The notes beneath the pieces were generated by a model. The model was given only the letters and a program-made list of their open reading frames with translations, did no database searches and was not told the DNA's origin. Both the position numbers and the translations under genes were made by a program. A DNA stretch of 9,881 bases from a virus. Lineage: Duplodnaviria > Heunggongvirae > Uroviricota > Caudoviricetes. The stretch lies in IMG/VR virus record IMGVR_UViG_2675903425_000022, one strand, 5' to 3'. Positions 4,190 to 7,195 of this stretch are shown here, one piece after another; positions within the stretch are counted from its first letter, which is position 1; every line of letters begins with the position of its first letter.

Positions 4190-4591
4190 ATGATGAGCGC
4201 CCTAGAAGTATCTATGTACAGAATCAGCAAGCTTCTTCAGGAAACTGGATGGAGCCAGGCTGAGCTTGCCCGTAGAATTGGTGTGACACAACAAACTGTT
4301 CAACAATGGGTCAGCGGTAAGGCTACACCTAAAGCCTCAAGTTTGGATAAACTGGTTGAGGTTTCAGGGCATCCATTGCATTGGTTTTTATTGCCTCCTG
4401 AAGAGTGTGAGCAAATTTTCACCCCTGACACGATGAAAATTGGTCCTCGCCAACGCGAACTGCTCCAAGCTTTTAGTGCGTTTCCTGAGGAAGACCAAGA
4501 AAAAATGCTTCAAGAAATCAAAGACAAGAAAAAATCAATGGAAGAAACCATTGCTAGGTGGCTGGCGGCACAAAAAAGCCGCCGGGCGTGA
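4190..4591 (+). CDS. paaR2: HTH (XRE-family) transcriptional regulator, PaaR2-like; occupies the CI-repressor position
   Basis: 133-aa ORF with HTH (SQAELARRIGVTQQTVQQWVSGK) and no LexA-type peptidase domain. It is first in a three-gene operon with a 63-aa antitoxin and a ParE toxin, matching the paaR2-paaA2-parE2 arrangement recalled from E. coli O157 prophage CP-933P. There is no Shine-Dalgarno before ATG 4190, so it may be leaderless or start at ATG 4214. Confidence 0.75.
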   Translation: MMSALEVSMYRISKLLQETGWSQAELARRIGVTQQTVQQWVSGKATPKASSLDKLVEVSGHPLHWFLLPPEECEQIFTPDTMKIGPRQRELLQAFSAFPEEDQEKMLQEIKDKKKSMEETIARWLAAQKSRRA

Positions 4592-4618: not shown

Positions 4619-4810
4619 ATGGGTACAGCCCTTTCTCCGATAGTTTCAGAATTCGAAACTACCGAACAAGAAAACAGTTACAACGAATGGTTGCGCACTA
4701 AAGTAACGTCAAGCCTTGCAGACACTCGCCCCGCAATTCCACATGACGAGGTAATGGCTGAAATGGAAAATCTTATTGCTCAAATTGCTGTAACTAACAA
4801 GAGCGAGTAA
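4619..4810 (+). CDS. paaA2: Small antitoxin of the ParE module (PaaA2-like)
   Basis: 63-aa acidic ORF (MGTALSPIVSEFETTEQENSYNEWLRTKV...). GAGGA 8 nt upstream of the ATG; its stop overlaps the toxin start (TAATG). Size and position match PaaA2 as recalled. Confidence 0.7.
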   Translation: MGTALSPIVSEFETTEQENSYNEWLRTKVTSSLADTRPAIPHDEVMAEMENLIAQIAVTNKSE

Positions 4811-5097
4811 TGTTACCCATTTTATGGCTACCGTCTGCTCGCGATGATTTGCGCCAGATCATAACTTACATCGCCAAGGAGAACCCACCGGCAGCACGTA
4901 GACTAAAAATACGCATTGAAACATCGGTATTACCTCTATCTGAGCATCCGTACTTATATCCACCAAGCGAACGGGTTTCTGGATTGAGAGAGATCGTGAC
5001 CCACCCTAACTACATAATCCTGTACAGAGTAGCTGCTTCAAGCATTGAGATTGTAAGCGTGACACATTCTCGGCGACAATTTCCCTTCTCTATCTGA
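4810..5097 (+). CDS. parE2: ParE/RelE-family toxin (ParE2-like)
   Basis: 95-aa ORF translationally coupled to the antitoxin. Sequence ...RQIITYIAKENPPAARRLKIRIETSVLPLSEHPYLYPPSERVSGLREIVTHPNYIILYRV... is typical of ParE/RelE-fold toxins. Confidence 0.8.
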   Translation: MLPILWLPSARDDLRQIITYIAKENPPAARRLKIRIETSVLPLSEHPYLYPPSERVSGLREIVTHPNYIILYRVAASSIEIVSVTHSRRQFPFSI

Positions 5098-5115
5098 GTT
5101 GAACAATTTTCATAC

Positions 5116-5138
5116 TCCCTCTTTCGAGGGATTTTTTT
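5116..5138 (+). terminator. Intrinsic terminator after the toxin gene
   Basis: Stem TCCCTC (5116-5121), loop TTTC, stem GAGGGA (5126-5131), followed by TTTTTTT (5132-5138). Confidence 0.65.
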
Positions 5139-5374: not shown

Positions 5375-5530
5375 ATGGATACTATCGATCTTGGCAACAA
5401 CGAATCTCTGGTGTACGGCGTGTTTCCCAACCAGGACGGTACATTCACCGCGATGACGTATACCAAAAGCAAAACGTTTAAAACCGAAAATGGTGCCCGT
5501 CGCTGGCTGGAAAGAAACTCAGGTGAGTGA
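5375..5530 (+). CDS. YdfA/YdaF-like small protein (51 aa, DUF1391-type)
   Basis: ATG at 5375 with GAGG 7 nt upstream; MDTIDLGNNESLVYGVFPNQDGTFTAMTYTKSKTFKTENGARRWLERNSGE. It is the first gene after the second operator, as ydfA is in the Qin dicB operon (recalled). Confidence 0.7.
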   Translation: MDTIDLGNNESLVYGVFPNQDGTFTAMTYTKSKTFKTENGARRWLERNSGE

Positions 5531-5531
5531 T

Positions 5532-5660
5532 ATGGATTTCGACACAATCATGGAAAAGGCTTACGAAGAATACTTCGAAGGCCTTGCCGAAGGCGAGGAA
5601 GCTCTCAGCTTCAGTGAGTTTAAACAGGCGCTTTCCAGTTCGGCAAAATCTAACGACTAA
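5532..5660 (+). CDS. YdfB-like small protein (42 aa); absent from the supplied ORF track because of its size
   Basis: ATG at 5532 lies 1 nt after the upstream stop, with AGGTGAG upstream. Translation MDFDTIMEKAYEEYFEGLAEGEEALSFSEFKQALSSSAKSND ends at TAA 5658-5660. Confidence 0.6.
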   Translation: MDFDTIMEKAYEEYFEGLAEGEEALSFSEFKQALSSSAKSND

Positions 5661-5671
5661 CGGAGTTAAAG

Positions 5672-6210
5672 ATGGAATTTAAAGATTTACTAAAAGAAAT
5701 CCAGGAAATTGCAGCACATGCACTTCACCAACGTCTGAACGAAGTTGAATTAGAATCTGCAACGAAGAAATACATTGATAATATGGCTCGTAATGTGCGC
5801 GATGCGTTTACCGGATTGTACTCTGTTTCGGTAACAAACAACCAGAATACTGAAGAAACTGCAAAGCGGATTGCCTCGGTGATGGGTTTTCATGTCGAGG
5901 AAAAGTATTCAAAAAAAGAATTCTGGAAAACTACAAAAAAATTGCAGAGCGAGAACTGTCATCTCCTGCGGCAATCGCTTCTTTCTATGAGGAAAGTTAT
6001 TCAGATGACACAGGATTACCGGAACTGCTCTCATTACTTGAAAAATTCGGAATTATCATGAAAGGGACTGCGTCGGCGGATTTCACATACTCAATGATGG
6101 CTGCTGATGGAGAGCCTTTTCCTCCCGAACTTAAAATAACCCCCGGCAATCATCCGATGGTAACAATAAGAGCAATAGAGAATTACTGGTTTAATCCAGT
6201 TCAACAATAG
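5672..6210 (+). pseudogene. ydfC-position gene split by a -1 frameshift at A7 runs (apparent pseudogene, sequencing error, or programmed slip)
   Basis: Frame-2 ORF 5672-6061 (GGAG 6 nt upstream) reads naturally to ...EEKYSKKEF, then becomes Cys/His-rich and low-complexity. The -1 frame is open from 5854 to TAG 6208-6210 and reads naturally (IAERELSSPAAIASFYEESYSDDTGLPELLSLLEKFGIIMKGTASADF...NYWFNPVQQ). Two A7 runs (5911-5917, 5935-5941) sit at the transition. Confidence 0.5.
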
Positions 6211-6247: not shown

Positions 6248-6433
6248 TTAATCTCGGGCGGCGTTTAACTCTTTATTCAGTAAATCAGACTGATACTGAT
6301 TTGGCTTTGTAATGATACTGTCAAGTTTTGATATATGAAATTCAACATGTTCTGGACAGTTAAAAATGTAATAACCGCCCTTCTCTAAAAAGCCAGAAAG
6401 AGCGTTACAGGCAGGGCATGGTTTGTTTGGCAT
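6248..6433 (-). CDS. Small zinc-ribbon protein (61 aa), opposite in orientation to the surrounding operon
   Basis: ATG at 6433 (top CAT 6431-6433) with GGAGGA 5 nt upstream. Translation MPNKPCPACNALSGFLEKGGYYIFNCPEHVEFHISKLDSIITKPNQYQSDLLNKELNAARD has CPAC...x16...CPEH, a zinc-ribbon-like pattern. Confidence 0.55.
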   Translation of the reverse strand: MPNKPCPACNALSGFLEKGGYYIFNCPEHVEFHISKLDSIITKPNQYQSDLLNKELNAARD

Positions 6434-6768
6434 TTTATCCTCCATTAAGGGCTGAATTAAAAATGGAGACCAACACGCTGCTACGTGTGGTCGTGCGCCG
6501 GACACAGATAAGAATCCGGCACTGACAGTTTACTGAAAGGATATATCCCTGAAAAGTCAGGGCATAACACGAAAGTGCACGGCGAAGTCCTTCTCCCTTA
6601 GAGCCGTCGTTAAATTTAATTCGACCGTGCGCTTCCGGTTGTGGCAATCCGCGAAATGGCGCGGCGGTAAGTATGGCGGGGTTATTCTTTCCCCGTTGAG
6701 GACACCGGGTTGTCAGGTTGACCATACGCTTAAGTGACAACCCCGCTGCAACGCCCTCTGTTATCAAT

Positions 6769-6821
6769 ATTCTGGTGACATTTGGCGGTATCAGTTTTAC
6801 TCCGTAACTGCTCTGCCGCCC
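6769..6821 (+). ncRNA. dicF: DicF small RNA homolog (53 nt)
   Basis: ATTCTGGTGACATTTGGCGGTATCAGTTTTACTCCGTAACTGCTCTGCCGCCC differs at 3 of 53 positions from the K-12 DicF sequence as I recall it (TTTCTGGTGACGTTTGGCGGTATCAGTTTTACTCCGTGACTGCTCTGCCGCCC). It is followed by TTTTTT and located just upstream of dicB, as in Qin. Confidence 0.8.
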
Positions 6822-6833
6822 TTTTTTAAAAGT

Positions 6834-6988
6834 GAATTTTGTGATGCGGTGAATGCGGCTCAGCGCACGCGGAACAGTTAAATCGGTAAAGCGGTCATTT
6901 GCTGAGTAACGAGAATGCTCTGTATCCGGCGTTAATTGTTAACTGGTTAACGTCACCTGGAGGCACCAGGCACCGCATCACAAAATTC
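6834..6988 (+). promoter_or_regulatory. Long-range perfect 18-bp inverted repeat (extendable to about 21 bp with one G-U) enclosing 119 nt; candidate RNase III processing duplex between dicF and dicB
   Basis: GAATTTTGTGATGCGGTG (6834-6851) is the exact reverse complement of CACCGCATCACAAAATTC (6971-6988). The 3' arm ends 6 nt upstream of the dicB Shine-Dalgarno (GAGGA 6995-6999). Confidence 0.5.
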
Positions 6989-7006: not shown

Positions 7007-7195
7007 ATGGAAAAGTTATCATGTAATGCCAGCACGTCTGAACTTCGTTTCGAAATTGGCGTTATCACTGGAGACAAAACATTTATTGAAGACGCCATTA
7101 AGCAGAGAAAACTCGAGCAGGACCTGTTAAATGAAGTATGCATTCCTTCAATGCTGGCTCGTCTGGACCTGCTGCAAAAAGGATATAAACAATGA
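7007..7195 (+). CDS. dicB: DicB-like cell-division inhibitor (62 aa)
   Basis: MEKLSCNASTSELRFEIGVITGDKTFIEDAIKQRKLEQDLLNEVCIPSMLARLDLLQKGYKQ aligns along its length with K-12 DicB as recalled (...FEIGVTISNPVFTEDAINKRKQERELLNKICIVSMLARLRL...). GAGGA 7 nt upstream of the ATG; directly downstream of dicF. Confidence 0.85.
   Translation: MEKLSCNASTSELRFEIGVITGDKTFIEDAIKQRKLEQDLLNEVCIPSMLARLDLLQKGYKQ

Follow-up and report, generated by a model that had tools for sequence, protein, structure and literature searches.

The window analysed here is the whole 9,881-nucleotide (nt) stretch of DNA from virus record IMGVR_UViG_2675903425_000022 (Caudoviricetes), and its sequence is identical to that of a lambdoid prophage of Escherichia coli O157:H7 integrated next to yccA. 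The plus strand carries, in operon order, a dicA-like helix-turn-helix repressor gene (4190-4591), relB/relE (4619-5097), the DUF1391/ydfA gene (5375-5530), ydfB (5532-5660), an open reading frame (ORF) of 129 amino acids (aa; 5672-6061), a spacer, the DicF small RNA (6770-6821; Rfam RF00039, 76.9 bits) and dicB (7007-7195). A DUF1482 gene, an exonuclease gene and an integrase gene follow 3′ of dicB on the same strand, and a 61-aa gene (6248-6433) adjoins the spacer on the minus strand. The spacer, positions 6434-6768 (hereafter the block), is the subject of the present analysis. It is very probably non-coding RNA of this repressor-controlled, dicBF-type early-left operon, and its 3′ third, 6638-6752 (the core), is, with equally high confidence, a discrete RNA domain transcribed from the plus strand.

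As the initial annotation of the window had placed it, the block lies directly 5′ of DicF, the RF00039 match occupying 6770-6821. BLAST matches to the block were found in 4419 of 5426 complete E. coli genomes, with recurrent breakpoints. Positions 6492-6768 share 89.6% identity with the ydfC-dicF spacer of the K-12 prophage Qin, covering 83% of the block; Stx2c phages and phage cdtI share the shorter segment 6638-6760, and in P1-like plasmids the match is limited to 6649-6745, with 76-81% identity. The homology breakpoints cluster at module edges, namely 6492, 6552, 6561, 6638, 6649, 6745 and 6760. DicF is processed by ribonuclease E (RNase E) from a polycistronic transcript (PMC5069750, PMC9438474), and the earlier suggestion that the block is precursor sequence is correct in the sense that it is an untranslated part of the dicBF-type transcript that yields DicF, with about 90% identity to the K-12 spacer. 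A second small RNA, likewise suggested there, may also exist.

The core contains four helices (P0, P1, P2 and P3) and a pseudoknot, and the part common to P1-like elements extends from 6649 to 6745. The closing helix P0 pairs the 5′ arm GTTGTGG (6638-6644) with CTGCAAC (6746-6752) and is 94% paired across homologues; elsewhere its 3′ arm reads CCACAAC or CTACAAC, which switches the U-G and G-U pairs to U-A and G-C. P0 is missing or unpaired in the P1-like copies and in a few rearranged copies. Helix P1 (CCGCG-AAATGG-CGCGG, 6649-6664) is 96.5% paired and exhibits one-sided (G-U) changes only, so that it is conserved rather than covarying. Helix P2 (CGGGG-TTATTCTTT-CCCCG, 6677-6695, with arms at 6677-6681 and 6691-6695) is variable in stem and length and has a pyrimidine-rich loop; its variants CTGGGG/CTCCAG, CAGGTG/CACCTG, CAGGG/CCCTG, CCCGGG/CCCGGG and CTGGG/CCCAG all form hairpins, and three of its pairs are changed on both sides in the model-based alignment described below. 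Helix P3 (6707-6743) is a 9-base-pair (bp) stem, GGGTTGTCA/TGACAACCC, enclosing a 19-nt loop, and five of its pairs are changed on both sides, as seen in Izhakiella (GGGTAACCA/TGGTTACCC), Citrobacter (GGATTGTCA/TGGCAATCC) and phage P1 (...GCCA/TGGC...).

The P3 loop is almost invariant (GGTTGACCATACGCTTAAG in the window, GGTTGACCATACGCYTRAG in the consensus) and provides the 3′ strand of the pseudoknot. The main pseudoknot helix pairs GTATGG (6671-6676) with 6722-6727 inside the P3 loop, is 99.6% paired and was predicted independently by RNAalifold; an extension pairs GGT (6666-6668) with 6728-6730. In phage P1 the helix is GCATGG/CCATGC, changed on both sides, and Salmonella phage F1055 has the intermediate GTATGG/CCATGC, with a G-U pair. 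The core also keeps two long invariant single-stranded runs, CGCGAAATGGCGCGGCGGTAAGTATGG and CAGGTTGACCATACGCYTRAGTG, between which lies a hairpin variable in both sequence and length. A tRNA-like alternative, in which an 8-bp repeat (6676-6683/6739-6746) would form a 71-nt acceptor-like closure, was rejected: ARAGORN found no tRNA or tmRNA in the window and Rfam gave no tRNA match in the block. This pairing was dropped in favour of P2 and P3 because it fails in lineages where the 5′ arm of P2 changes without a matching change in AACCCCGC.

Homologues of the core were collected as 120 viral contigs found by an exact 16-mer and 16 contigs of species-representative genomes, together with P1, P7-like and other phage-plasmids, Salmonella phage F1055 and phage 2H10. 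Fourteen of the 16 genome contigs carry the element and two were chance matches; the carriers are Escherichia albertii, E. ruysiae, Shigella, Citrobacter, Trabulsiella, Serratia symbiotica, Erwinia tracheiphila, Izhakiella and three metagenome bins assigned to other taxa. The core is present in Escherichia, Shigella, Citrobacter, Salmonella, Erwinia, Serratia and P1/P7. Rearranged copies were also seen: in L012 (1634-1785) a module-A hairpin, from the upstream part of the block, is fused to helix P1 and the 5′ arm of P0 is lost, in L056 and L131 the 5′ flank differs, and in L014 (4668-4812) P2 contains a 23-nt G-rich insertion. Since all four keep helix P1, P3 and the pseudoknot, P0 and P2 appear to be dispensable or plastic.

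In a MAFFT alignment of 51 distinct core sequences, 95.1% of the cells form standard pairs, and 10 of the 35 pairs are changed on both sides; shuffled alignments contained 2.6 ± 1.4 such pairs (0/500 reached 10), and sliding the 3′ partners by 1-3 columns left 34-55% pairing. The model-based alignment of 52 sequences, which was itself fitted to a covariance model, exhibited 96.0% standard pairs and 13 of 35 pairs changed on both sides (shuffles 3.0 ± 1.3, 0/500 reaching 13), with 35-54% pairing after the same displacement. The compensatory changes come from phage P1, where they are seen in the pseudoknot, P2 and P3, and from Izhakiella, Citrobacter, Serratia and several E. coli phage lineages. 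G-U pairs were frequent in P0 (U-G 25, G-U 30) and in the pseudoknot extension (G-U 35, U-G 50). Because these would be A-C mismatches on the minus strand, the core RNA is that of the operon-sense, plus strand.

R1, a covariance model derived from the alignment, matches 6635-6755 with 150.8 bits and detects exactly one copy at each locus. Pairwise identity averages 84% in the core and 64% in either flank, a comparison biased by the exact-word seeds with which the loci were found, and the core is better conserved than DicF itself. The Rfam covariance scan returned no known family for the block at E<=10 (4227 families); at the gathering threshold and at E<=10, the only Rfam matches were DicF and a sub-threshold STnc100-like match downstream. 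The 52-nt DicF model RF00039 did not match within the block, its sole match lying outside it at 6770-6821. No description of the core fold or its function was found in Rfam or in the searchable literature, which did not include Faubladier & Bouche 1994 or Lobocka et al. 2004. These results indicate that the core is a discrete, selected RNA fold on the operon-sense strand and a new RNA motif in a known setting.

The initial annotation had listed five perfect stems, all of which are present: GCCGGA/TCCGGC (6497-6502/6515-6520), CCCTGA/TCAGGG (6547-6552/6557-6562), CCGCG/CGCGG (6649-6653/6660-6664), CGGGG/CCCCG (6677-6681/6691-6695) and the 9-bp GGGTTGTCA/TGACAACCC (6707-6715/6735-6743). The last had been singled out as the most notable, and it is indeed the helix with the most compensatory changes. 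The accompanying caution that such short stems can arise by chance holds for the two upstream stems, which have no comparative support, and fails for those at 6649, 6677 and 6707, which stand above chance because comparison with homologues reveals a conserved fold with compensatory changes. That account misses the single 115-nt domain into which these three stems combine with the closing helix and the pseudoknot. Compensatory changes were present in the core (6638-6752), whereas the same comparison of the upstream module (44 distinct sequences) revealed none. For the folding energy of the whole block, z was -2.87 on the plus strand (2 of 100 shuffles were as stable) and -3.59 on the minus strand, so that the single-sequence energy evidence for structure in the block is only modest.

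The 5′ two thirds of the block is ordinary spacer. Positions 6492-6637 (plus strand), termed module A, are a conserved untranslated spacer of the ydfC-type 3′ untranslated region (UTR), about 90% identical to the Qin spacer that forms the ydfC 3′ UTR in K-12. Module A includes hairpin H1 (6497-6520), in which the stem never varies and the loop does, hairpin H3 (6547-6562), which is perfect in only about half of the variants, and a long 13-bp helix (6570-6582/6625-6637). None of its predicted pairs was changed on both sides in the 44 sequences, and mosaic joints lie in or around it at 6492, 6552 and 6561. Module A may be structured, and selection for that structure finds no support in this comparison. 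The boxB-like appearance of CCCTGAAAAGTCAGGG within module A was rejected, as this sequence is not conserved.

For the remaining stretch, 6434-6491, a different relationship was observed. This lineage-specific spacer adjoins the start of the minus-strand 61-aa gene and is carried only by O157-type copies that also have that gene, the K-12 type and most homologues matching from 6492 onward; the gene and its 58 adjoining nt are limited to some prophage lineages. The 61-aa protein had been called a zinc ribbon, which is a putative label, given that it has no Pfam match and that its sole match is PHROG 10133, of unassigned function. The stretch is probably the 5′ UTR or promoter-proximal DNA of the 61-aa gene, a promoter or leader role that the initial annotation had considered for the whole block. 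This gene quite possibly has its promoter and 5′ UTR in the first 60-130 nt (6434 to about 6560), an arrangement that would be compatible with any reading of the core: the gene begins at 6433, a GGAGG ribosome-binding site lies at 6440-6446, the adjoining 58 nt are restricted to gene-bearing copies, and an inverted repeat, CTCCATT/AATGGAG (6440-6446/6462-6468), could form a hairpin on the minus-strand mRNA that would mask the GGAGG site. However, no sigma-70 consensus promoter for the gene was found on the minus strand of 6434-6768. Of the whole block, only the first ~60-130 nt suit the proposal.

Downstream, the core is followed by an A/U-rich single-stranded linker, GCCCTCTGTTATCAATA (6753-6769), which is the presumed site of the DicF 5′ end, transcription from the dicB-type promoter and RNase E cleavage at that end being known from the literature for K-12, and then by DicF with its terminator (6770-6827; stem 6784-6820, T-run 6822-6827). 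A stable hairpin with a T-run starts 11-57 nt after P0 in 136 of 136 copies. The terminator and the single-stranded seed that follow the core occur in at least 12 variants, only one of which is genuine DicF; across loci L005-L124 the stem base TTTGGCGG...CCGCCCTTTTT is conserved and at least 12 seeds and loops differ. This pattern suggests that the post-core cassettes are a diversifying set of prophage small RNAs with DicF proper as one member. All the DicF loci that an independent pattern scan listed were among those already collected as carriers of the core.

In Erwinia, Salmonella phage F1055, Serratia, Trabulsiella and Izhakiella, the long post-core terminator hairpin encloses AGGAG and an ATG or GTG (MFYRGTAFF...), and the frame from this start runs past the T-run (L139 ~4670-4740, L144 ~2630-2700, L130, L137 and L140). 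This arrangement could represent a small ORF with its start buried in the terminator. Farther downstream in the window, a 24-nt inverted repeat (6828-6851/6971-6994, plus strand, 92% complementary) lies 3′ of DicF and frames the STnc100-like Rfam match at 6835-6984, whose 33.6 bits fall short of the gathering score of 47. The duplex 6828-6851/6971-6994 is probably the RNase III site that gives the literature-reported 72-nt DicF 3′ end.

The core always lies 3′ of the immunity repressor gene or promoter, in the operon that begins directly beyond that gene. Upstream of the core, a CI/DicA-type repressor gene was found 358-3007 nt away on the same strand in 97 of the 125 loci with sufficient upstream DNA, and on the opposite strand in 0 of 125. 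In the Stx2c phage, the order is cI, terminator, near-consensus promoter, ~270-nt leader, core, terminator and early-left genes; the promoter is strong and PL-like (TTGACA-16-CATAAT) and lies about 270 nt 5′ of the core. Phages 2H10 and F1055 and an Erwinia prophage exhibit a similar arrangement. No candidate for an own promoter just 5′ of the core reaches the consensus, and a start site there is also disfavoured because it would exclude the P0 arm that shows pairing.

Two further features lie between the repressor gene and the core. In the window, an inserted relB/relE toxin-antitoxin pair separates the dicA-like repressor gene from the early-left promoter region (4619-5131), with a clean intrinsic terminator after relBE (5116-5131, TCCCTCTTTCGAGGGA plus T7); K-12 Qin has no relBE insert at the corresponding position. 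Lineages other than the Qin type carry, immediately 5′ of the core and often after a small hairpin, the boxA-like motif RGTGCTCTYTTCG, which resembles the rrn boxA, TGCTCTTTAACAA (L139 4540-4560, L144 2475-2495, L137, L003 2489-2500 and L146 2436-2450). It hints at Nus-factor involvement in N-less early-left operons.

We tentatively favour a cis-acting leader RNA of the antitermination type that modulates the terminator, although this reading is possible rather than established. The core would fold co-transcriptionally and act in cis on the intrinsic terminator 11-57 nt downstream. It would thereby set how often transcription terminates, releasing a DicF-type small RNA, and how often it continues into dicB and the remaining early-left genes. 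An influence on termination is suggested by the position of the core, by its invariable coupling to a terminator whose sequence varies freely, and by the nearly invariant single-stranded nucleotides, which would be suitable for contacting conserved host machinery, RNA polymerase for instance. No N-type antiterminator was found among the operon proteins with PHROGs and Pfam. Complementarity of the P2 loop to downstream ribosome-binding sites was also considered and rejected, as only generic short matches were found and the window loop, UUAUUCUUU, is without the CCU motif seen elsewhere.

Several observations weigh against this proposal. None of the 80 loci that were retrieved with a relative of the downstream protein carries the core, and one core-less locus that was inspected keeps a PL-proximal terminator hairpin, not of the DicF family, and a boxA-like motif. 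On these grounds, the core is an accessory cassette that read-through does not require. The R1 search found one core per locus and none in the rightward operon; nut and put sites occur as L and R pairs. Inspection of the variants revealed no conserved alternative pairing between core and terminator, only a generic 5-bp GGCGG/CCGCC match that is absent in phage P1. In the window, the DicF terminator stands alone between the core and the distal genes, so that there would be little need for processive antitermination. As regards the fold, independent covariation events are few because the sequence set is dominated by close relatives, and the folding energy of the core alone (3′ 121 nt) gave z = -1.49, with 17 of 200 shuffles as good. 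The role in cis-termination is itself a prediction from position and conservation.

A stronger form of the terminator-modulating reading is more doubtful. It holds that the core represents a class of cis-acting phage RNA for transcription elongation that had not been recognised before. Such a class would have no relation to put or nut and would be common to lambdoid and P1-type phages; it would decide at the next terminator between a DicF-type small RNA and the early genes (dicB and others) and might answer a host signal.

Among the other readings of the core, the one that survives best, though it is on balance unlikely, is a scaffold for maturation or stability. The core would be the 5′ domain of the small-RNA precursor, presenting the linker to RNase E or shielding the precursor and so releasing a defined small RNA with a 5′-monophosphate. 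The cutting of the DicF 5′ end by RNase E from a long transcript (PMC5069750, PMC9438474) fits this view, as do the A/U-rich single-stranded linker exactly between the core and DicF, the presence of the core at all bona fide DicF loci of the independent pattern scan, and the joint travel of core and terminator. However, the linker is just 11-12 nt long and is not A/U-rich in several lineages (Stx2c type), and a 115-nt pseudoknot with invariant loops far exceeds the needs of known RNase E substrates. Short dicF fragments are reportedly functional when over-expressed.

Rather less plausible is a stable trans-acting RNA, in which the core, alone or with the terminator (~180 nt), would be the product, protein-binding or antisense, and the first of the derepressed early operon, with DicF as a 3′ by-product. 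The promoter-to-terminator stretch of phage P1 would give a discrete RNA of ~180 nt, the invariant 19-nt loop and the loop of helix P1 resemble recognition surfaces, and the core is more conserved than the small-RNA part and behaves as a mobile cassette. Yet the centre of the invariant loop is occupied by the intramolecular pseudoknot, no target or partner is known, and the lambdoid cores are without their own promoter, P0 pairing implying transcription from upstream.

A riboswitch-like sensor is improbable; in this reading the core would bind a metabolite, ion or alarmone as an aptamer and thereby gate the terminator. The pseudoknot, the invariant junction and loop nucleotides, the variable peripheral P2, the 5′-leader position and the terminator directly downstream all recall such a device, whereas the supposed expression platform varies freely, and inspection of the variants revealed no conserved antiterminator or anti-antiterminator pairing. 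Moreover, the core matches none of the 4227 Rfam families and hence no known aptamer class, and in Qin-type copies as much as 1.3 kb, including translated genes, separates it from the promoter.

It is very improbable that the block acts as DNA, either as a conserved linker promoting recombination between mosaic genomes or as a protein-binding site in which the hairpins are incidental. Lambdoid phages exchange modules at conserved boundary sequences, and the homology breakpoints cluster at module edges; but compensatory double changes and a strand-specific G-U pattern are signatures of RNA, and P2 changes in sequence and length yet remains a hairpin.

The weakest reading, a protein translationally coupled to the 61-aa gene and encoded by a minus-strand frame of 110 codons (6435-6767), is scarcely credible. 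This frame is open throughout, with its stop 1 nt short of the following ATG, and K-12 likewise keeps it open (111 codons) although the two sequences differ by about 10%. Yet it starts with TTG, its translation is Arg/Cys-rich and unprotein-like, and 89 of 119 distinct homologous stretches break it, frequently through 1-nt insertions or deletions that the RNA fold tolerates. RefSeq annotates nothing at the block in nearly all genomes, and the G-U pattern favours selection on the plus-strand RNA. Because the frame is broken in homologues and RefSeq is nearly silent, it was judged not to be a gene and the block is treated as non-coding. The earlier statement that the block has no credible ORF needs qualifying, as this frame spans it, and is otherwise borne out by the interruptions. 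That the frame is open in both the window and K-12 is probably a by-product of a G+C-rich structured RNA, its recurrence being mildly odd. Given the RNA-type covariation and the frame breaks, the recombination linker and the minus-strand gene are both unlikely.

No prophage small RNA has been known for longer than DicF, which inhibits cell division and regulates metabolism, as well as virulence in enterohaemorrhagic E. coli. The core is an obvious candidate for controlling the amount of DicF relative to that of the toxic DicB from the same operon, as it lies directly upstream of DicF, is better conserved than DicF and is common to the leader of the phage P1 ban operon. It occurs in the repressor-controlled early operons of two very different phage types, in each case tied to a freely varying terminator. 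Should the core modulate termination, temperate phages would have, besides put, a second means of controlling an early operon by RNA alone; should it serve instead as a scaffold for processing or act as an RNA in its own right, it would still define a new RNA family worth curating.

Compared with the K-12 Qin dicBF operon, the window has an orthologous spacer and the same neighbours (ydfA, ydfB, dicF, dicB and DUF1482), and the core is part of what has been termed the "long untranslated region containing dicF" of K-12. In contrast to the present description, the literature on K-12 treats the ydfC-dicF region as spacer cut by RNase E and RNase III; that literature describes no structured domain there, and Rfam has no entry for it.

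The C4/IsrK family (Rfam CL00128) likewise comprises structured regulatory RNAs that phage P1 and lambdoid prophages produce by processing of longer early transcripts. Its models did not match in the block, whereas genuine C4 and IsrK copies occur elsewhere in the Stx2c phage locus: C4 antisense RNA (80.1 bits) and IsrK (60.1 bits) lie at L003 39-227 on the minus strand, ~2.3 kb from the core and on the opposite strand to it. They are a separate RNA-based regulatory module in that phage.

Lambda nut shares with the core the boxA-like motif, which lies just 5′ of the core in non-Qin lineages, and a leader position like that of nutL. It differs in that no N-like protein was found in the operon (PHROGs, Pfam) and in that the motif of the window is degenerate (GTGCGCTTCCGG) and is predicted to pair with 6570-6582. 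The boxA-like motif is a feature separate from the core, as it is also present in the related phage without a core. In position, the core would be analogous to nutL or putL and homologous to neither.

HK022 put RNA, which is about 70 nt long and folds into two stem-loops arranged as a V (PMC9378689), is similarly found in the leader of a repressor-controlled early operon of a lambdoid phage without N protein, as a structured nascent RNA upstream of terminators. However, put is present at both PL and PR, and its activity has been proven to proceed via the zinc-binding domain of β′, whereas the core is 115 nt long, has four helices and a pseudoknot, and is found in one copy, always on the side of the repressor gene. 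R1 gave no match at E<=10 in the HK022 immunity region (23.5-32 kb). The likeness of the core to put is thus one of position and concept, and does not extend to size, architecture, copy number or homology.

The closest relative of the core lies in phage P1, where the leader of the ban operon, which is under C1 control, carries a misc_feature (68791-68892, AF234172/AF234173) named "dicF-like region". This is the same element: R1 scores it at 88.9 bits, helices P1, P2 and P3 and the pseudoknot are kept with compensatory changes, and a terminator follows directly, after which the GenBank record gives tRNA-Asn, tRNA-Thr, tciABC and ban. The phage P1 element is without the P0 closing helix and the DicF seed, and it lies ~35 nt after the transcription start of the C1-operator-controlled P1ban/P2ban promoters, compared with ~1.3 kb in the window. 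The GenBank feature covers only the 3′ half, from P3 to the terminator, and gives neither structure nor function. The similarity in sequence between the dicF region and phage P1 was therefore certainly recognised earlier, as the feature itself attests. What is new is the conserved pseudoknotted RNA domain directly upstream of DicF, which is in kind a phage early-operon leader RNA.

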